DNA from: a virus
Taxonomy: Duplodnaviria; Caudoviricetes
Virus record (IMG/VR): IMGVR_UViG_3300037418_002116
Reading direction: 5' to 3' (one strand)
DNA: 64,000 nucleotides
A program made the position numbers and the translations under genes. Shown here piece by piece: positions 2,792-28,209 of the stretch. The notes under the pieces were generated by a model. That model saw nothing but the letters and a program-made list of their open reading frames with translations, ran no database searches and was not told where the DNA came from. How positions within the stretch are numbered: position 1 is the stretch's first letter; each line of letters begins with the position of its first letter.

Positions 2792-4367
2792 TGGCATCGA
2801 ATTTCTAAGGGGCACGGGCGAGCAAATCGACTATACCCCGGAGATGCAAGCAGAAATCGTAAGATGTTACAACAGTTATGAGTATTTCGTAGAGAATTAC
2901 ATTAAGATTGACGATAACTCTGGTAATCTCAATCTAATCAAGCTGTATGACTATCAAAAGCGACTACTTAAGCTTATTCACTCAAACAAATTCGTTATTT
3001 GTAAGTTCCCTCGCCAGTGCGGTAAGACTACTTCGATGGCGACCTATATTGTTTGGTGTATCATCTTCAAAAAGCGTTTCAAGGTTGGTGTTGCCGCCGA
3101 TAAGGACGAAACGGCGACCGAAATTATGGACCGTGTGAAGACTGCTTACGAAAATCTGCCATATTGGATGCAACAAGGCGTCAAGAAATGGGACGCTCAC
3201 AAGGTCGTGCTTGAAAACGGCTCCCGTGTGGACGCTTCCGCTACCACCAAGAAAACCATGCGTGGTAAGACCTACAATCTTGTTTTGCTTGACGAATTTG
3301 CGTTCGTGGACCAGAACATCGCTGACCCATTCTTTACCGCTATCTACCCCGTTATTTCGAAGAATGATCCGACCAAGCGTATCGAGGAACAGACCAAACT
3401 TATCATCATCTCGACACCTAACGGCATGAATCACTTCCACAAGCTCTATGTGGAAGCCGAAAAGAAACAGAACACGTTTAAGAACATTGAAATTCGCTGG
3501 TACGAAGTGCCGGGCCGTGATGAAAAGTTCAAACAAGAAACAATCCGGAACATTGGCGACGACCGTTGGGAACAAGAATATGACGGCTCATTCCTTGGTG
3601 CCTCCACCAGCTTGATTCCGCCTAAGAAGCTGAAAACGCTTACTTGGGAAACACCGTTCGAAACATTCGAGGATATGGAATTTTATCGCCAGCCCGAGCC
3701 CGGTCACACATACTTCATTTCCGTTGACGTGTGCCGTGGTCGTGGTCTGGACTATCACGCTATGTCGATCATCGATATCACGCAACTGCCATATGTTGTG
3801 TGCGCCACCTATCACAACAATATGCTGGATACGATGTTGTATCCGACTCTGATTGTGAACATGGCTAAGCGCTACAATGAAGCGTTTGTGCTAATCGAAT
3901 TGAACGACATTGGTAAGCAAGTCGCTGATATCTGTGTTGAATTGGAATATGAAAATATGCTTTCAACCGTGACCAAAGGACGCTCCGGACAGGTGTTGAC
4001 GGTTGAATCGGGTAACGCCATGGGTCTAACCATGTCGAAGCCGGTGAAATCCACAGGCTGTTCTAACCTTAAGTCATTGATTGTAAACGATCAATTGATC
4101 CTGAATGACTACAAATACATTCAGGAATTGACCACGTTTGAAATTGCTTCTGGCCAGTACAAAGCGGCCCCCGGTGCGCATGACGATATGGTCATGTCTC
4201 TTGTGACATTTGCGTGGGCAACGACCGAAGTTTACTTCCAAGATTTGTTGGATGCTAACATTCGTGAAATGCTCTTCACAAAGCGCATCCAACAAATGGA
4301 AGATGACTTGGTGCCTGTAGGATTTCTAGGCGATATGAGCGGTGATGATACGCCAGTTGATTTTTAA
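2784..4367 (+). CDS. Terminase large subunit (T4 gp17-like)
   Basis: Walker A PRQCGKTT, Walker B LVLLDEFAF, ISTPNG motif III, nuclease motifs ISVDVCRG, ELNDIG and HDDMVMSL. Confidence 0.97.
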   Translation: MYNGIEFLRGTGEQIDYTPEMQAEIVRCYNSYEYFVENYIKIDDNSGNLNLIKLYDYQKRLLKLIHSNKFVICKFPRQCGKTTSMATYIVWCIIFKKRFKVGVAADKDETATEIMDRVKTAYENLPYWMQQGVKKWDAHKVVLENGSRVDASATTKKTMRGKTYNLVLLDEFAFVDQNIADPFFTAIYPVISKNDPTKRIEEQTKLIIISTPNGMNHFHKLYVEAEKKQNTFKNIEIRWYEVPGRDEKFKQETIRNIGDDRWEQEYDGSFLGASTSLIPPKKLKTLTWETPFETFEDMEFYRQPEPGHTYFISVDVCRGRGLDYHAMSIIDITQLPYVVCATYHNNMLDTMLYPTLIVNMAKRYNEAFVLIELNDIGKQVADICVELEYENMLSTVTKGRSGQVLTVESGNAMGLTMSKPVKSTGCSNLKSLIVNDQLILNDYKYIQELTTFEIASGQYKAAPGAHDDMVMSLVTFAWATTEVYFQDLLDANIREMLFTKRIQQMEDDLVPVGFLGDMSGDDTPVDF

Positions 4368-21445: not shown

Positions 21446-21530
21446 TGGAGGCGTCAGTGGGATTTGAACCCACACTCCGTAGAGACTTCCGCTTTGCAGG
21501 CGGATACGTTAGCCATTCCGTCACAACGCC
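21446..21530 (-). tRNA. trnC: tRNA-Cys(GCA) with long variable arm
   Basis: Cloverleaf: GGCGTTG/TGACGCC acceptor, U73, encoded CCA, anticodon loop CTGCAAA, T arm GTGGG-TTCAAAT-CCCAC, 14-nt variable region. Confidence 0.9.
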
Positions 21531-21536
21531 ACTTGT

Positions 21537-21845
21537 CTATTTATCTTCCACAAATTTCAATTCGTCAAGAGTTTTGAACGAAATATAGCTGGCGTTATGG
21601 TCATTCACATAACCAGCGCCATCAACTCTGTAGATTTGAATGTGAATCGTAACTCTATCGTTATCATCCACATCGATATCATCCGTGATAATGGCACGGC
21701 GTTTGTGGTCACGATACCAGATTTCGATATGCTTACCAGCAAGGTAGGTTACTAACCATTCCTTGTAAGTTTTCCGAGCATACCAGAACGAATTTCGAAG
21801 TTCAAAGAATCTTTCGTTTACAGTCGGTCCAAAGTGTGTCGCCAT
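21537..21845 (-). CDS. Hypothetical protein
   Basis: Overlaps the glycosyltransferase end. Confidence 0.6.
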   Translation of the reverse strand: MATHFGPTVNERFFELRNSFWYARKTYKEWLVTYLAGKHIEIWYRDHKRRAIITDDIDVDDNDRVTIHIQIYRVDGAGYVNDHNASYISFKTLDELKFVEDK

Positions 21846-22786
21846 TGTTTTAGGCGTCCTTCAATGTTATATTCAGAATTAGCATACCTTTTTTGCAAAG
21901 TCAAGTTATTTTGCACCATAGGTTGATGATAGTTATCTATCACTTGCAAAAGGTAATTTGCGAATGTCGTCATATGTTGTGTTGGGTCTTCATTCCATCG
22001 ATAGGTGAAGCCGTATGACGACAGAGTTTCCGGCAGAGCGCCATAATCCGGAGCGATAACCGCACACCCCGCCGCCATAGCCTCTATAGCGGCAATACAG
22101 CTTGTTTCAGGCCATATGCACGGGTAGGCGAAGATATCTGCCATCGTCAACGCAACCCTCACAGCGTCGTTAGAAACGGCCCCATGACTGGTTATCTGTG
22201 GATGGTCGTTGGCGATGTCGAACAGCGCCTTGTATGGTTGGTCACGATGTCCCCAACCATAAATTTCAAATGATGAAAATATGTCCAGATGAACGTTCGG
22301 ACGGAGCTTGGCGATTTCGAGGAACACCGGAATCAGAAGCTCTAGGCCACGATGTGGAGTCGTGTGGTAGATCAGCCGGATTTTGTCGTCTTTGCGCTTT
22401 GGTGTGTCGTCAAACGGAACAATCGCATTGCGGATGACAGAGCTTCCTTTGAAGGGAACCCCGAGCGCCAGATTGTAAGTGTTGAACTGATAGTTCGACA
22501 CGAACACCAATTGATCGAAACGAGAGCGGCTTAGCTCATTCCGCAGATGAGCGGATTCCGGATCATCCCATGTGTCGTTCAGGATGAGAATTTTCTTTTT
22601 TCCCGGCACCAGTGTGCGAACCCGAGAGGAAATAAACTGAAATTTTTCAGTGTATTCCGGGCCGAGTCCTTCGGTGATTCGTTTGTACATAAGTTCAGAC
22701 CCACCACGGGAATTTTTTGACAATCCCGTGAGTGGGTCTATGTGATCGTCCGCAAGTGATTGCGGCTTACTGATTTGATATTCCAA
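21818..22786 (-). CDS. GT-B glycosyltransferase (GT4-like)
   Basis: RGGSE, LIYHTTPHRGL, ADIFAYPCIWPETSCIAAIEAMAAG, GALPET motifs. Confidence 0.85.
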   Translation of the reverse strand: MEYQISKPQSLADDHIDPLTGLSKNSRGGSELMYKRITEGLGPEYTEKFQFISSRVRTLVPGKKKILILNDTWDDPESAHLRNELSRSRFDQLVFVSNYQFNTYNLALGVPFKGSSVIRNAIVPFDDTPKRKDDKIRLIYHTTPHRGLELLIPVFLEIAKLRPNVHLDIFSSFEIYGWGHRDQPYKALFDIANDHPQITSHGAVSNDAVRVALTMADIFAYPCIWPETSCIAAIEAMAAGCAVIAPDYGALPETLSSYGFTYRWNEDPTQHMTTFANYLLQVIDNYHQPMVQNNLTLQKRYANSEYNIEGRLKQWRHTLDRL

Positions 22787-22800
22787 GCTCTAACTTTCTG

Positions 22801-24237
22801 TCAGAGTTTTGCATTTTCTCTGACTTGATCGAGATTCCATAATTGTAGAATCTTACCATTTTCAAAAACTTTTGTCAAGGAATTTCGCATACCTTTGATA
22901 CCAACATCCCGTTCATCAATTGTGATGTACTTTCCGTCGATTGTATCTTTTGTGACCGCCAAGCGACCGGCCTTGGATGCCTTGCCCATGTCGCTCTTGG
23001 GTTTCTTGTACACGTCAACCCAACCGCTGCCCATATCCATGGCATTGCACTTCATGGCGTATTTGAGCGAGTCACGATTGACTTGCTGTAGCAGAGCGCC
23101 GCCCATGCCGAACACGATGTTGTCAGCAGACCAGCCATGATCCCGGTAATTTTCCAAGATCGCATGGATTGTGGCCTTGCCGACGCCATCACCTTGAAGG
23201 ATGCGCACGGACGGATGCAGGACATGGAAGCCCTTCGAATTTTCGGTATAACCGAATTTCTGCCCGAGCAATTCGATCACGTTCAAGGTGACTTCGACTG
23301 GATCACCGGAGTCGGGCCGAACCACAAGCAATGCGCCCGAGTCAAGCACTTCCTGTTTGAGCTTGTCGCCCCAAATGTTCGACACAGCATTGTAGATGTC
23401 ATAGGAATCCGACACGACAGACACGATTGCGCCCGGTTTGCCGAACTGTTTCAGCATATTCCGGTAAGCGTCTTCCTCATGCTCTTCGCCCCATGACGTG
23501 ATGGTGGAGTGTTCAGCCGCCGACACGGAAAAGCCCGCCATGTCACAGTTGTACTCCCAATAGGCACCGACAATCGCCGGAACGGTATCTGTGCCCATGA
23601 AATTGACAAGATGCGCCATCCCGCCAATCTTGGCCGACTCGAAGGATGATGCGCCACGGCAACCGAAATCATGGAGCTTGAACGGAATTTGTTCGGCTGG
23701 ATTGTCAGAAGTTTCCAGCAAAAATTTCCAGATATCTTTTTTAATTTCCCGTGACAGGGTAGCGACGGTCGATGGATACCAGACGGCCCGCAACAGCGCC
23801 GTTTCGACATAGCTGGTAAGCCAGAAGAAATCCGGATGAGTGTTGCGGATTTGAACTTGCGGCGTATGCAGCGGAACTACTGTCCCTTCCGGCAAGGCTT
23901 CGATGGAGAGTGGCATATAGCCTAGCTTTGCCAGTGCAAGCCATCCTTCCTTGTTGAAGGGGACGCCATGCTTCGCAGCAAGCTTCGCCGCCCATTCGAT
24001 TTGGTATTCATTTGGCACATACAAAAGCTCTTGCAAGAACGGCTGTAGGCCAAAGTGAACCACTTCCGGTTCCTTGCCAATCAAGCCCTTTTGATCGCTG
24101 AATGGAAATGCCGTACCACGAGTTTCAATGTAGGACGATACATATTTCGTGCCCGGTGGATATTGCAGCCAATGGCTGAATTTGTATGAATCACCCGACA
24201 GGATGATATTTTCGAATATAGATTCTCTAGCTGACAT
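22801..24237 (-). CDS. nadV: Nicotinamide phosphoribosyltransferase (Nampt)
   Basis: DSYKFSH, KLHDFGCRG, AEHSTITSWG, VSDSYD, VVRPDSGDP, ILQGDG, FGMGGALLQ motifs. Confidence 0.97.
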   Translation of the reverse strand: MSARESIFENIILSGDSYKFSHWLQYPPGTKYVSSYIETRGTAFPFSDQKGLIGKEPEVVHFGLQPFLQELLYVPNEYQIEWAAKLAAKHGVPFNKEGWLALAKLGYMPLSIEALPEGTVVPLHTPQVQIRNTHPDFFWLTSYVETALLRAVWYPSTVATLSREIKKDIWKFLLETSDNPAEQIPFKLHDFGCRGASSFESAKIGGMAHLVNFMGTDTVPAIVGAYWEYNCDMAGFSVSAAEHSTITSWGEEHEEDAYRNMLKQFGKPGAIVSVVSDSYDIYNAVSNIWGDKLKQEVLDSGALLVVRPDSGDPVEVTLNVIELLGQKFGYTENSKGFHVLHPSVRILQGDGVGKATIHAILENYRDHGWSADNIVFGMGGALLQQVNRDSLKYAMKCNAMDMGSGWVDVYKKPKSDMGKASKAGRLAVTKDTIDGKYITIDERDVGIKGMRNSLTKVFENGKILQLWNLDQVRENAKL

Positions 24238-24281
24238 TTTGTTCTCCTAATTGGGAGGGATTTTTGGGTCTATCCCGGTTT
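24238..24281 (-). promoter_or_regulatory. Leader motif upstream of nadV: GGG-ATAGA-CCC hairpin plus CTCC-CAATTA-GGAG SD-sequestering hairpin
   Basis: Read directly; near-identical motif at 26385-26428. Confidence 0.65.
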
Positions 24282-25337
24282 CTATTCTGTTACTTCATAG
24301 TGTTTCATGACATAGCCCTTTGTAGCGTCACCTTTTTGATATGACTTTACTCGGGCTCTCTTGGCTTCGCACTTTGTGCATTGCCAACGTTCAGGCTTAT
24401 ATTCTTCAAACGTGTGATCGCATGTTTGGCTTCCGCCGATTGTTCGATAGAATGGCTTGCACCAGTGACGCCTTGGTGAAGCTCTTTCATGTGCCGTCTC
24501 GATATACTTCCGAATGGTTTTGACTTCATTCAGATGAATGGTAACGACGGTGTGTGCCATGTAAGCAACTTGCTTGCCTTTTATGAAACCACGCTTCGGT
24601 GCCACATCTCGCAATTCGATCACTTTTTGCGACTGATACAGGAAAAGGATCATGGTGATGAGATTGCGAAGATCACCAGCACCATCCGGCAAAATTTCCC
24701 TAAGCTTGTTTTCTGGCAATTCGGAAATGTTGAGAAAGTGATATTTCTCAACAATTTCATTCCGCATTTCCATGGGAATATCGTTGTCGGAAGAGCCGAG
24801 CATATGAGCGGCTTTCATGCGCCTTGACATGACCACTTCATCCGGGCGACCTTCCGAAGGACCAATCACAATGGCGTAAAGCAGCACCGCTGGCGCTCTG
24901 CCGTCCATACCTTTCGATATGGCGAAAATCATGTTGCCAACGACAAGATATCCGACTCGCCAGTCACGCTTTTCATCGTTGCCGGTCTTTGGACGCCCAA
25001 AAGCTTGCAAGAACAAATCAACATCGAATTCGTAATACGACACGTCGAAGTGTGGTATCGCAAATTGTTCGTTCTTGAACAGAAGTTCCGGAGCCTCTTT
25101 GATGAAATCGGCCATGATTTCAGAAGACTTTTCATCAAAAATAAACTGCTTTGCCTTTGGAAGAGCATACTTGATCGCATTGACCCATTTGTTTTGAACG
25201 CCTCTCATGGTATCTTTTGGTGAAAAGCGTCTCATTTCATCAAGCAAAGAACCTTCGTTCTTGGAACGACCAAGTTCACGCAAAACGTCGTCAATATTCC
25301 GAGGCGGTTTATTGAGAATGGATGCCGGATTTGCCAT
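24282..25337 (-). CDS. Hypothetical protein (351 aa) between the NAD salvage genes
   Basis: Long ORF; C-terminal ERASPRRHW motif and CxHx...CxxC; function unknown. Confidence 0.75.
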   Translation of the reverse strand: MANPASILNKPPRNIDDVLRELGRSKNEGSLLDEMRRFSPKDTMRGVQNKWVNAIKYALPKAKQFIFDEKSSEIMADFIKEAPELLFKNEQFAIPHFDVSYYEFDVDLFLQAFGRPKTGNDEKRDWRVGYLVVGNMIFAISKGMDGRAPAVLLYAIVIGPSEGRPDEVVMSRRMKAAHMLGSSDNDIPMEMRNEIVEKYHFLNISELPENKLREILPDGAGDLRNLITMILFLYQSQKVIELRDVAPKRGFIKGKQVAYMAHTVVTIHLNEVKTIRKYIETAHERASPRRHWCKPFYRTIGGSQTCDHTFEEYKPERWQCTKCEAKRARVKSYQKGDATKGYVMKHYEVTE

Positions 25338-25340
25338 AGC

Positions 25341-26384
25341 TTAGAGCCCCAAAAATTGATCAATAATATCCCAATGATCTTCGAACATTTTTGTTGGGTC
25401 TAGATCGTCCAGCAAGACCCACTTGGCGTCAACGGCGTCGTCGGAACCCTTGATTGTCGGCAATTCCCCATCGGGCAAGCGAATGAGCGCTGCATGAGAG
25501 ACTGTGCGGCCTCTCTGACTCCGGTGTGGATGATCGGCCAAGAACCACTTTTCGATGGAGCCTTCAAGCTTTGGCAAGCGAACGCCAATCTTGGTTTCCT
25601 CGATTAGCTCACGCAACACGCCTTCCTTGACGGTTTCGCCTTGGTTCAGAAAGCCGCCCGGCAGAGCCCAAAGACCTTCACCCGGCATTCCGCCACGCTT
25701 GACCAAAAGCACATGACCAGACTGAACAACCACGGCATCGGTCGTGACGAAGATTGGCGGAAACTGGTTATATTTCTGCCCGTCAACTTCTACCGGCTCG
25801 AATTGCTTTTTGTATTTTTTGATGTGTTCATATTCTCGTTCAATCACATCCAATTCTGATTTGAAAAACAAATTGGTAACGATGCTCTTGTGATTGTCGT
25901 CCACAAACCATTCCGCATTACGTGGTCTGTTTTCATAGAATGCGCACCGAATATCGGTTGCGTTCACCGGATATGGAGTCGGTAAATCCAGCAAATCCCA
26001 TTGTGGGAATTTTTTCAGATAATAGGAAGAATGATCTTTCGAATGACCGATGACGCCAATTTTGGTTGGTCCAGCCCGCCACGGATGATTCGTGGCTGTT
26101 CTGATGATGGCTTGGATTTCAGTTTCCCATTTCGTGTCATTGTACATGAAATCATCACAGGGGACGACAGAGACACGCTTGCGTTCATCGGGTGTGAGCA
26201 ATGACTCGATCAAGCGTTTGCGTTCATCGAACGTGAACGGATTCTTTGCGGTGCGTGGCCTATTGGCCGAACCGACAATCAGGATAACGTTTTGGGATTT
26301 TGCGAGAGCGGTCTGTAAGACCTTGAAATGGCCAGCGTGAAATGGCTGGAAACGGCCTATGAAGGCCAGAAAATCGTACTGCAT
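25341..26384 (-). CDS. nadM: Bifunctional NMN adenylyltransferase/Nudix ADP-ribose pyrophosphatase (NadM-Nudix, NatV-like)
   Basis: FIGRFQPFHAGH, KNPFTFDER, VNATDIR, Nudix box GGFLNQGETVKEGVLRELIEETK, FEDHWDII. Confidence 0.95.
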   Translation of the reverse strand: MQYDFLAFIGRFQPFHAGHFKVLQTALAKSQNVILIVGSANRPRTAKNPFTFDERKRLIESLLTPDERKRVSVVPCDDFMYNDTKWETEIQAIIRTATNHPWRAGPTKIGVIGHSKDHSSYYLKKFPQWDLLDLPTPYPVNATDIRCAFYENRPRNAEWFVDDNHKSIVTNLFFKSELDVIEREYEHIKKYKKQFEPVEVDGQKYNQFPPIFVTTDAVVVQSGHVLLVKRGGMPGEGLWALPGGFLNQGETVKEGVLRELIEETKIGVRLPKLEGSIEKWFLADHPHRSQRGRTVSHAALIRLPDGELPTIKGSDDAVDAKWVLLDDLDPTKMFEDHWDIIDQFLGL

Positions 26385-26476
26385 TTATCACTCCAATTTG
26401 GGAGAGGTTCTTGTGGTCTATCCACAAGCTTATTTATTCGAATATATGCTATATGTTGACGTTTGTCAAGAGAAAA
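26385..26476 (-). promoter_or_regulatory. sigma70-type promoter and two-hairpin leader of nadM
   Basis: TTGACA-N17-TATATT, then CTTGTGG-ATAGA-CCACAAG and CTCC-CAAATT-GGAG before the ATG. Confidence 0.75.
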
Positions 26477-26614
26477 TTTATGTCAAGGGAAAGTTGAATA
26501 TTTTAATCGATTGAAAGCCCATATTGTCATTTTACATTTCACTAATTTAGGAACATCATTTTCGTGGGTAGGGGCAATAGGGAGAAACGTGGGCAGGGGC
26601 AGAGGGAGAATGTC

Positions 26615-26920: not shown

Positions 26921-27256
26921 TTATGGAGCAATTCCAACATCGTAATCGTATTCAAATTCTTCGTTTTCTTCGTCCCACTCGCCCTTCATTTCAAGAACCC
27001 ATGCATTATAGGCTTCGGACGGTTCGCCGGTACTCACTCGATATTCCGGATCATGGTCTTTCCAACGGGCTTCCACAACAATAACTGGCGTCCCTTTGAG
27101 GATGCGAGCAACTTGATCCATGCACCATTGCTTATGCCAACCATCGTACTGGCCATATCGTTCAATGTAATACATTGCCCAATCAGTTGGGGTGAAATTT
27201 TTGAAGGGAGAAAAATCGATATCGACCGGGAATTCTCCCAAATAATTTTCAGCCAT
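26921..27256 (-). CDS. Acidic hypothetical protein
   Basis: Overlaps the HisRS-like gene end. Confidence 0.7.
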   Translation of the reverse strand: MAENYLGEFPVDIDFSPFKNFTPTDWAMYYIERYGQYDGWHKQWCMDQVARILKGTPVIVVEARWKDHDPEYRVSTGEPSEAYNAWVLEMKGEWDEENEEFEYDYDVGIAP

Positions 27257-27896
27257 CTTTTTTGTCCAGTGCCAGCATGAGACGATCTACACCGATAGCC
27301 CAACCGATTCCTTGTGCGTATCGACCACCACCGGCAACCTGTTTCTGTGCGCCAAGCGACTCGCACTCAACTTCGAAACCATCCTCGATATAGTAACCCA
27401 AACCACGGGTAACCGTCTCTTTGAAGTCGAAGTCCAAAACAGGGTCCATCCCGAGTGCATAGAGGCAATCCTTTAACAGGAATTTTGCCTCATAGGCATC
27501 CTCTTCAGGATTTTTGTTGCCAAGGATTTCCACACCAAACTGTGTGAATTCCCGATAGCGACCAGCTTGCGGGCGCTCATAGCGATAGCAGCGATTCACA
27601 TAGAAAAGCTTGATTGGCTTGGGCATCGCTTTGCTCCAATCCGAATCATACATTTCCTGAATGATTCCGGTGACTTCCGGAATCAATGTCACGCCACGAC
27701 CGCCCTTGTCTGCGAAGGACCACATTTGATCCTTCGTTTCATTTGAAATTTTCTTACAAAAGGTTTCGGCATCCCAAATGGAAGGGATCACAACTTCCTT
27801 GAAGCCACGGGCTTTACAAGTTACACGCAACGTATCGATAACATTCGTGTAAAGAGCCGCTTCCTCTCCCATTAATATGCGGGTGCCTTTCAGCAT
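27249..27896 (-). CDS. Minimal histidyl-tRNA synthetase-like protein (catalytic core only, 215 aa)
   Basis: Start at ATG 27896 with AAGGAAG RBS; motif 1 GFKEVVIP, TLIPEVT, motif 2 YRYERPQAGRYREFTQFGVE, HisA RGLGYY, HisB GGGRY, motif 3 GWAIGVDRL. Confidence 0.9.
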   Translation of the reverse strand: MLKGTRILMGEEAALYTNVIDTLRVTCKARGFKEVVIPSIWDAETFCKKISNETKDQMWSFADKGGRGVTLIPEVTGIIQEMYDSDWSKAMPKPIKLFYVNRCYRYERPQAGRYREFTQFGVEILGNKNPEEDAYEAKFLLKDCLYALGMDPVLDFDFKETVTRGLGYYIEDGFEVECESLGAQKQVAGGGRYAQGIGWAIGVDRLMLALDKKDG

Positions 27897-27897
27897 T

Positions 27898-28209
27898 TTA
27901 CTTCCTTTGGACAAGTGCAACGTAAACTTTGTCCACAATAGACTCAAAATATACGTTTGTCCAGCCGTGTGATTTGAAATGTTTGCGAATTGCGGCATAA
28001 ACTTTATGCCTGTTTTCCCGAGAAATCTTGGGAGCATCGAAGTTCATCACATAGGCAGTAAGGCCAGTTTTCACCGCTTCTTCTGCCAAAGGCCAATCGA
28101 ATGGCATGGGTGTTTTTGAGAAATACGAAACCGTCTCATACTCTTCCGCCTGCAAATTCTTGTCTATGACATTTTGGAGCCGGGCGGTTGCGGTCGAAAG
28201 TTTCATCAT
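27898..28209 (-). CDS. Hypothetical protein
   Basis: Behind a TTTGAC-N16-CTATAT promoter; abuts the HisRS-like gene. Confidence 0.65.
   Translation of the reverse strand: MMKLSTATARLQNVIDKNLQAEEYETVSYFSKTPMPFDWPLAEEAVKTGLTAYVMNFDAPKISRENRHKVYAAIRKHFKSHGWTNVYFESIVDKVYVALVQRK

Follow-up and report, generated by a model that had tools for sequence, protein, structure and literature searches.

A family of two-hairpin mRNA leaders upstream of the NAD+ salvage genes nadM-Nudix and nadV in phages and bacteria

Known regulatory systems and the nadM and nadV leaders

In other bacteria, the nicotinamide adenine dinucleotide (NAD+) salvage targets nadM-nadV and prs-nadV are coordinated by NrtR, a Nudix–winged helix-turn-helix protein that binds 21-bp DNA palindromes with a GT-N7-AC core (PMC2330246). 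Here we analyse the leaders of nadM and nadV in a 64,000-nt stretch of DNA from a virus of the Caudoviricetes (Duplodnaviria; IMG/VR record IMGVR_UViG_3300037418_002116; the whole stretch is called the window below). On the minus strand, both genes are preceded by a short hairpin with an AUAGA pentaloop (hairpin 1) and, closer to the start codon, by a second hairpin that includes the Shine–Dalgarno (SD) sequence (hairpin 2). The leader is an uncatalogued, widespread two-hairpin mRNA family, and the two leaders in the window are divergent members of it. Unlike the NrtR operators, the element is an oriented RNA hairpin in which the loop is invariant and non-palindromic. A preliminary description of the window, made from the sequence alone, had held that the leader resembles neither the NrtR palindrome nor the NAD+-I and NAD+-II riboswitches, and this agrees with its free arms, its non-palindromic center and the lack of a match in Rfam.

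The NAD+-I (nadA motif) and NAD+-II (pnuC motif) riboswitches are, like the leader, cis-regulatory RNAs located before NAD metabolism genes, and NAD+-II also acts on the SD sequence. However, the bulged tandem domains and the pseudoknot of these RNAs are not present in the leader, and the genes concerned are nadA and pnuC rather than nadM and nadV. Guanidine-II (mini-ykkC) shares with the leader an arrangement of two small hairpins with covarying stems, conserved loops and a variable linker, the second hairpin lying at the ribosome-binding site, and its layout shows that such a minimal design can be a riboswitch. The guanidine-II loops are identical, kissing ACGR tetraloops, whereas the pentaloops considered here differ from one another (ANAGA and GGANN; in the window, AUAGA and CAAAUU or CAAUUA), have no evident complementarity and find no match in Rfam. 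The genetic contexts also differ, being guanidine export and degradation in one case and NAD salvage in the other.

The autogenous operators of Escherichia coli thrS (read by ThrRS) and of T4 and RB69 gene 43, together with the Bacillus PyrR loops, resemble the leader in having a short hairpin with a sequence-specific loop and a free stem located at or 5′ of the SD–AUG region, a metabolic or replication enzyme as the reader (a candidate in the present case) and control of initiation as the outcome. They differ in lacking sequence or model similarity to the leader, which in addition uses one element for two genes and has a second, SD-carrying hairpin. PyrR, which has a phosphoribosyltransferase fold and binds RNA in a nucleotide-modulated manner, differs further in acting by transcription attenuation. 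CsrA/RsmA operators present GGA in the loop of a short SD hairpin, as hairpin 2 does, and have two sites at a set distance, but the loop of hairpin 1 has no GGA, the element is confined to NAD genes and no link to csrA was seen. GGA does occur in the window, at the stem–loop border of hairpin 1 (GGAUAGA) and in the SD sequence; since relatives lack it in hairpin 1 (AGAUAGACU, CGAUAGACG) and mostly have a base other than G before the loop, it is not a conserved feature there. ANTAR substrates are pairs of hairpins with A1 and G4 in their hexaloops, the second of which competes with a terminator. Hairpin 1 shares A1 and G4 with them, but its loop has 5 nt, the loop of hairpin 2 begins with G and no terminator follows.

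Rfam 15 gave no match to any family for window positions 24100-26600 at E-values up to 10, and nothing relevant in six phage and six bacterial related loci at E-values up to 5. The leader is likewise not described in the literature searched, which included papers on NAD+ reconstitution pathways (NARPs), on NrtR and from the Aravind group on viruses and NAD.

The leader family and its two target genes

In the nadM leader of the window, hairpin 1 (26428..26410, minus strand) consists of a 7-bp stem, CUUGUGG/CCACAAG, and the pentaloop AUAGA (26421..26417) on the closing pair G26422-C26416. Its folding energy is -9.4 kcal/mol, and it scores 32.3 bits (E 3e-5) against a covariance model of hairpin 1 (model R2). 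A local variant of hairpin 2 follows (26404..26391, minus strand; CUCC-CAAAUU-GGAG), in which the SD sequence GGAG forms the 3′ arm (26394..26391). Hairpin 1 of the nadV leader (24276..24266, minus strand) has the same pentaloop (24273..24269) on a 3-bp stem, GGG/CCC, and lies in the 44-nt gap after the stop codon of an open reading frame (ORF), ORF351; it scores 23.9 bits with R2 (E 7e-3), and its position is the same in the related loci L064 and L065. Here the local variant of hairpin 2 is CUCC-CAAUUA-GGAG (24257..24244, minus strand). Both leaders are present on the minus strand letter for letter as first quoted. The 9-mer GGATAGACC and the pattern CTCCCAAWTWGGAG each occur in two places only in the 64 kb, namely the two leaders on the minus strand, and R2 also matches only these within the window, in agreement with the earlier remark that the motif had not been noticed before other genes. 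The gene assignments are likewise upheld by domain matches: nadM-Nudix (25341..26384, minus strand; AUG at 26384) encodes a 347-residue nicotinamide mononucleotide (NMN) adenylyltransferase fused to an ADP-ribose pyrophosphatase (CTP_transf_like+NUDIX), and nadV (22801..24237, minus strand; AUG at 24237) a 478-residue nicotinamide phosphoribosyltransferase (NAMPT_N+NAPRTase).

The hairpin 1 model finds ~150 copies across metagenomic phages, three cultured phages and bacterial chromosomes, nearly all on the gene strand and 26-39 nt 5′ of nadM or nadV. When R2 was run at E<=1 on phage loci fetched by NadM alignment, 82 of the 83 matches were on the gene strand; 34 precede nadM, 41 precede nadV, 7 precede small operon-heading ORFs or mis-called starts, and 1 has no ORF. 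A control of 785 kb of other nadV loci contained one match, judged by inspection to be a true copy in a 373-kb phage contig. In the 147 kb of Rhodobacter phage RcXuper, the model matches only twice, at the nadM leader and at the nadV leader. The element is also present in Synechococcus phages B3 and BUCT-ZZ01, with AAAGA loops in the latter, and is absent from Xanthomonas phage X1 and a Vibrio jumbo phage. Among bacterial chromosomes, it is found beside nadM-Nudix and nadV in, for example, Pseudoalteromonas luteoviolacea, Hahella, Leucothrix, Marinicella, Methylococcales, Psychrobacter, Moraxella and Methylocystis. The covariance-model search proposed at the outset thus shows the motif to be strongly concentrated before nadM and nadV in phages and bacteria.

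In the bacterial loci, a pattern scan placed 30 copies ahead of nadM, 40 ahead of nadV and 2 ahead of an SPFH gene. Scans across three bacterial genomes (5-7 Mb) gave, at E<0.3, no match other than these leaders among the scored candidates, which were a subset of those from a first look and not an exhaustive set. A random sample of 150 Gammaproteobacteria yielded one new true match, before nadM, and one genome of repeat-derived false matches; palindromic repeats (AAAAUGGGGACAGACCCCUUUU) on both strands of G155 contig 1 (~306.5 kb, 360.9-361.8 kb; L412-L416) look like hairpin 1 to the model and account for false positives. Phages of cyanobacteria and alphaproteobacteria carry the cassette together with its leaders, as do bacteria of several classes. 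We consider it very likely that the leader functions as a cis-acting RNA dedicated to nadM and nadV.

The stem of hairpin 1 varies freely, and the A-N-A-G-A pentaloop and its closing pair (G-C, rarely C-G or A-U) are fixed. Among 79 distinct matches, the apex G-AUAGA-C is nearly invariant and the pair beneath it is GC in 40, AU in 21, CG in 13 and UA in 3, with none unpaired. Because a MAFFT alignment of full leaders (A5) misaligned hairpin 2, the two-hairpin model (R3) was based on an ungapped, equal-spacing subset of 25 sequences chosen by spacing only (A6). In this alignment, 93% of cells are paired, compared with 52% in shuffles and <=47% with partners slid, and both members vary in 12 of 13 pairs; for hairpin 2, 97.6% of cells are paired and both-side changes are seen in five of five pairs. 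The stem covariation first proposed from the window relied on a single pair (U-A versus G-C) that is weak alone, but with the relatives included the covariation is overwhelming.

A NadV-based scan of IMG/VR identified close relatives of the window in L064 (86% at the amino acid level) and L065 (79%), as well as more distant ones such as L067 (50% for NadV), a 247-kb contig rated 97% complete. All three have GGATAGACC before both nadM and nadV, and in L067 it occurs only at these two leaders. Compensatory changes in the lower stem are evident, as from CUUGUGG/CCACAAG in the window to CGUGAGG/CCUCACG in L065, among others. The nadM leaders of the window and L064 are 95.8% identical, whereas the coding sequence is 78% and the 80 nt upstream 56% identical; the leader is therefore under purifying selection. 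No close relative of the window was found at the DNA level in the cultured-phage collection, and a further metagenome scan with NadV added distant relatives only. An exact-pattern scan of IMG/VR gave 63 matches, with two in one contig in a single case (L039, the same contig as L064).

Hairpin 2 of the family has an AU-rich stem of 4-8 bp and, in 69 of 71 cases, a 5-nt loop (GGAGU in 38, GGAUU in 11 and GGAGA in 9; general form GGANN); the SD sequence lies within the loop, and the 3′ arm runs up to or into the AUG. Hairpins of this kind, abutting the AUG with the SD in the loop, accompany 93% of genes that follow hairpin 1 but 13.5% of other ORFs in the same loci, the latter including several nadM and nadV genes whose hairpin 1 fell below threshold. 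The second hairpin that buries the SD sequence, as first described, is real in the window, in L064 and in the nadM leader of L065, where the SD pairs with an upstream CUCC in a 4-bp hairpin, but it does not represent the family at large, and the nadV leader of L065 itself has the SD in the loop. With R3, the nadM leader of the window scores 20.2 bits, its GGAG being aligned to the family SD loop but its stem not, and the nadV leader is matched in hairpin 1 only. These low scores reflect the position of the SD in the 3′ arm of the CUCC hairpin. The SD-burying hairpin is a derived form, remodelled in this lineage. Because hairpin 1, spacing and location agree with the family but the hairpin 2 loop does not, we class the window leaders as divergent members.

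In the window, the first G of the SD sequence lies 21 nt (nadM) or 20 nt (nadV) past the C that closes hairpin 1; the family value is 22.3 +/- 1.65 nt (n=89). The variance of the apex-to-SD distance is 2.7, compared with the 10.1 expected if stem and linker lengths varied independently. Both window leaders lie within the ranges that define membership (apex to SD 19-25 nt; start codon 26-39 nt past the apex). The linker is rich in A, C and U, with 7% G and no conserved position, and the leader as a whole has only ~8 conserved unpaired positions, with no junction and no pseudoknot. A search for partners of the AUAGA loop in the linker, in the loop of hairpin 2 and at the start of the coding region found no conserved pairing, only sporadic complementarity (for example UCUAU in codons 8-10 of the window nadV). 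Mutually exclusive pairing between the stems of hairpins 1 and 2 is confined to one phage group, and we regard it as coincidental.

Translational control and its candidate readers

The nadV and nadM-Nudix genes constitute NAD+ reconstitution pathway 2 (NARP2), which rebuilds NAD+ against NAD-depleting immunity; the pathway consumes phosphoribosyl pyrophosphate (PRPP) and overproduces NAD+, and the KVP40 operon is toxic to clone in E. coli (bioRxiv 10.1101/2024.02.11.579819). This cost and toxicity provide a reason for control, and no description of NARP2 regulation was found in the literature searched.

The leader is most likely a translational operator. Hairpin 1 would be the recognition element, with a stem of any sequence and a fixed apex ~22 nt 5′ of the SD sequence, and hairpin 2 would hold the SD and end at the start codon. 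A protein is envisaged to read the apex of hairpin 1 and, at a fixed distance, the SD hairpin, and once bound it would keep the initiation region closed or block the 30S subunit. The most likely reader would be NadM-Nudix or NadV, giving autogenous feedback that could be lifted by scarcity of the enzyme or by its occupation with substrate. In the window, the remodelling of the SD hairpin into an anti-SD (CUCC) pairing would be expected to have the same effect. Our tentative reading is that the translation initiation of nadM-Nudix and nadV may be jointly controlled by a protein reader, most plausibly one of the two enzymes. The comparisons directly show the structure of the leader, its conservation, its gene specificity and its spacing, whereas we infer that it acts on translation, which way the control runs and what reads it.

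The only gene families common to all 71 motif-bearing loci are NadM-Nudix and NadV, and no third conserved neighbour that could serve as the reader occurs among them. ORF351 was rejected for this role, as no locus other than the window, L064 and L065 has it. Because the hosts belong to several phyla and classes, the reader should be encoded in the cassette, be universal or be a metabolite. A protein is favored over a ligand because there are few conserved unpaired bases, no junction or pseudoknot and no conserved linker base, and it is ranked above a riboswitch also because of the replacement of the hairpin 2 loop in the window and the concordance of apex classes described next.

A second apex class, C-AG(A/U)GA-G, was found in loci first taken as negative. 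It occurs in one phage clade (L240, L243, L244, L246-L249, L253, L263, L264 and L274), ~60 nt before nadM, and also before nadV. The leaders of one genome share their apex class: 16 loci are class 1/1, 10 are class 2/2 and none is mixed. In the NadM tree, class 2 forms one clade (Shimodaira–Hasegawa-like approximate likelihood ratio test, SH-aLRT, 99), and in the two outgroups closest to it the apex is C-AUAGA-G in the nadM leader and C-AAAGA-G in the nadV leader. Two loci, L254 and L271, look intermediate (C-AUAGA-G and C-AAAGA-G), and three nadV leaders have A-GUUGA-U. Within one lineage of NadM, both leaders thus changed first in the closing pair and later in the loop, and such a joint change fits a shared reader with drifting specificity.

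Several observations weigh against control by a protein reader. The concordant apex classes come from a single lineage and could be explained by gene conversion from one leader to the other; the similarity of hairpin 2 within a genome also suggests gene conversion. Pfam shows no RNA-binding domain in either enzyme, only CTP_transf_like+NUDIX and NAMPT_N+NAPRTase. Spread across phyla and by horizontal transfer is equally typical of riboswitches, and the guanidine-II riboswitch binds its ligand with no more than two very small hairpins whose loops are conserved. Which way the control runs is a guess, as the AU-rich hairpin 2 is weak and could present the SD sequence rather than hide it. NrtR is absent from three motif-bearing genomes yet stands beside the motif locus in Hahella (Hahella sp. 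NBU794, G005, 6901684-6901860), where its gene lies ~2.4 kb from the motif-bearing nadM; the RNA is therefore not a simple substitute for NrtR, and regulation there is layered, with control at both the DNA and the RNA level.

A small molecule is a possible but rather unlikely reader. NAD+, NMN, nicotinamide, ADP-ribose or PRPP would bind at or between the pentaloops, with hairpin 1 docking on the SD hairpin in a manner similar to guanidine-II. Consistent with this, the element lies ahead of two genes that are not homologous but belong to the same pathway, in phages and bacteria of several phyla, and it travels with the cassette. Its two loops are strictly 5 nt long and keep a constant distance, and the loci share no further conserved protein. 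Sensing products of NAD+ breakdown would make biological sense, and coexistence with the ADP-ribose-sensing NrtR in Hahella leaves room for the RNA to sense something else. The architecture argues the other way, with very few conserved unpaired bases, no conserved linker, no junction or pseudoknot, loops that on inspection lack consistent complementarity to each other or to the linker, and no alternative pairing between the two stems. A loop–loop pocket is also hard to reconcile with the window lineage, in which the hairpin 2 loop was swapped for anti-SD pairing while hairpin 1 and the spacing were kept, and with apex classes that change together in both leaders. That the leader represents a new minimal riboswitch class, with two pentaloop hairpins at a fixed distance sensing nicotinamide, ADP-ribose, NMN or NAD+, strikes us as doubtful; if it does, NARP2 would be switched on only during NAD+ destruction, for example by Thoeris, DSR or other NADase defences. 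It is more doubtful still that the element is constitutive, setting a fixed level of translation as a 5′ stabilizer, a processing site or a ribosome standby site or enhancer, with a universal or host factor or no reader at all. The position of the nadM hairpin 1 immediately after a promoter-like -10 box, at an mRNA 5′ end where hairpins protect transcripts, would suit this role, the fixed SD distance could reflect contact with the 30S platform, and hosts across phyla fit a universal partner. However, a general stabilizer or enhancer needs neither an invariant loop nor confinement to two genes per genome, the nadV copies are internal to operons, and the apex has no obvious complementarity to rRNA as judged against the E. 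coli 16S sequence only.

All of these readings place the signal in RNA; we regard it as very improbable that NrtR, NadR, NiaR or another transcription factor recognizes the element as a DNA operator, even though such repressors commonly govern NAD genes, inverted repeats are present and NrtR is encoded nearby in Hahella. The arms are free and the non-palindromic center is fixed, the reverse of a dimeric operator, and the NrtR palindrome does not fit. In hairpin 1, G.U pairs outnumber A.C pairs by 66 to 15, a ratio inflated somewhat by a stem detector that allowed G.U on extension, and orientation and distance are tied to the SD sequence and the AUG even for copies inside operons. The structure accordingly belongs to the sense-strand RNA. 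A chance resemblance or a neutral local duplication of the ribosome-binding region is refuted by the comparison of genomes: the leaders of one genome are alike in hairpin 2 as well, making copying between leaders probable, but ~150 copies with covarying stems occur across phages and bacteria, although identity among their NadM and NadV proteins is as low as 40-50%. The number of copies, their covariation and their restriction to the sense strand bear out the earlier proposal of an element at the RNA level that is due neither to chance nor to a DNA palindrome.

If control by a protein reader is correct, the leader adds a new case of translational feedback through an enzyme, and otherwise perhaps a new riboswitch class. 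NARP2 would have its first known control point in this dedicated RNA element, which is conserved between cyanophages and the chromosomes of gammaproteobacteria. The element is also a compact, portable regulatory part, and the cultured carriers RcXuper, B3, BUCT-ZZ01, P. luteoviolacea and Hahella permit direct tests.

The window locus and variation among related cassettes

On the minus strand of the window, the order is promoter, leader, nadM-Nudix, ORF351 and then the 44-nt gap that holds the second leader and leads into nadV. A sigma-70-type promoter, TTGACA-17-TATATT (26441..26469, minus strand), was identified by its 11/12 match to consensus only, and an ATAAATA box resembling a T4-type late -10 element (26431..26437, minus strand) lies directly 3′ of its -10 box. 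Transcription of nadM would begin a few bases 5′ of hairpin 1, which would place hairpin 1 at the 5′ end of the mRNA. ATAAATA-like boxes are also found just 5′ of hairpin 1 in relatives; in many first-gene leaders, an ATAAATA/TATAAATA box lies 3-8 nt 5′ of hairpin 1 (for example L235, L256, L269, L290 and L293). A scanner flagged the complement of hairpin 1 as a plus-strand terminator, an interpretation we rejected: no gene lies on the plus strand at that point, and the hairpin always faces the same way with respect to nadM and nadV.

ORF351 (24282..25337, minus strand) begins after a 3-nt gap from the nadM stop codon and encodes a protein with a Cys-rich C-terminus (CxxxxC...CxxC-like). Pfam and PHROG give no match for it. 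Its homologues occur only in L064 and L065 among all loci fetched, and it is outside the conserved cassette. A GT1 glycosyltransferase gene (21818-22786, minus strand) lies directly 3′ of nadV. The NAD cluster is flanked by a truncated gene similar to that of histidyl-tRNA synthetase (27249-28037, minus strand) and by four tRNA genes (Cys, His and two Gln) at 21446, 26824, 28278 and 28365.

Other cassettes vary in the genes they include. Between nadM and nadV of related phages, genes for ADP-ribose processing and for de novo NAD synthesis occur without a leader copy of their own. They include a NADAR gene (L277, L294), a Macro-like gene below the Pfam cut-off (L281, L285, L288, L308, L273), a NadA gene (L301) or a nucleoside deoxyribosyltransferase-like gene (L310). 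These intervening genes confirm an NAD/ADP-ribose theme, and none of them is constant. In Microbulbifer and Dasania (L346:5568-5650; L353:5647-5721), a third full two-hairpin leader precedes an SPFH/Band-7 gene 3′ of nadV, which may be an extra member of the regulon with no obvious link to NAD. The two-hairpin model has no match at E<=1 in the two Psychrobacter genomes scanned. In L336, L398 and other Psychrobacter and Moraxella loci (~4040-4170), ~58-61 nt separate hairpin 1 from the SD-like hairpin that follows, and an additional hairpin lies between the two. Finally, the nadV homologue of L107:1-2112 spans 2112 nt for 387 aligned residues, which points to an insertion of ~950 nt in the gene, possibly an intein or a mobile intron.

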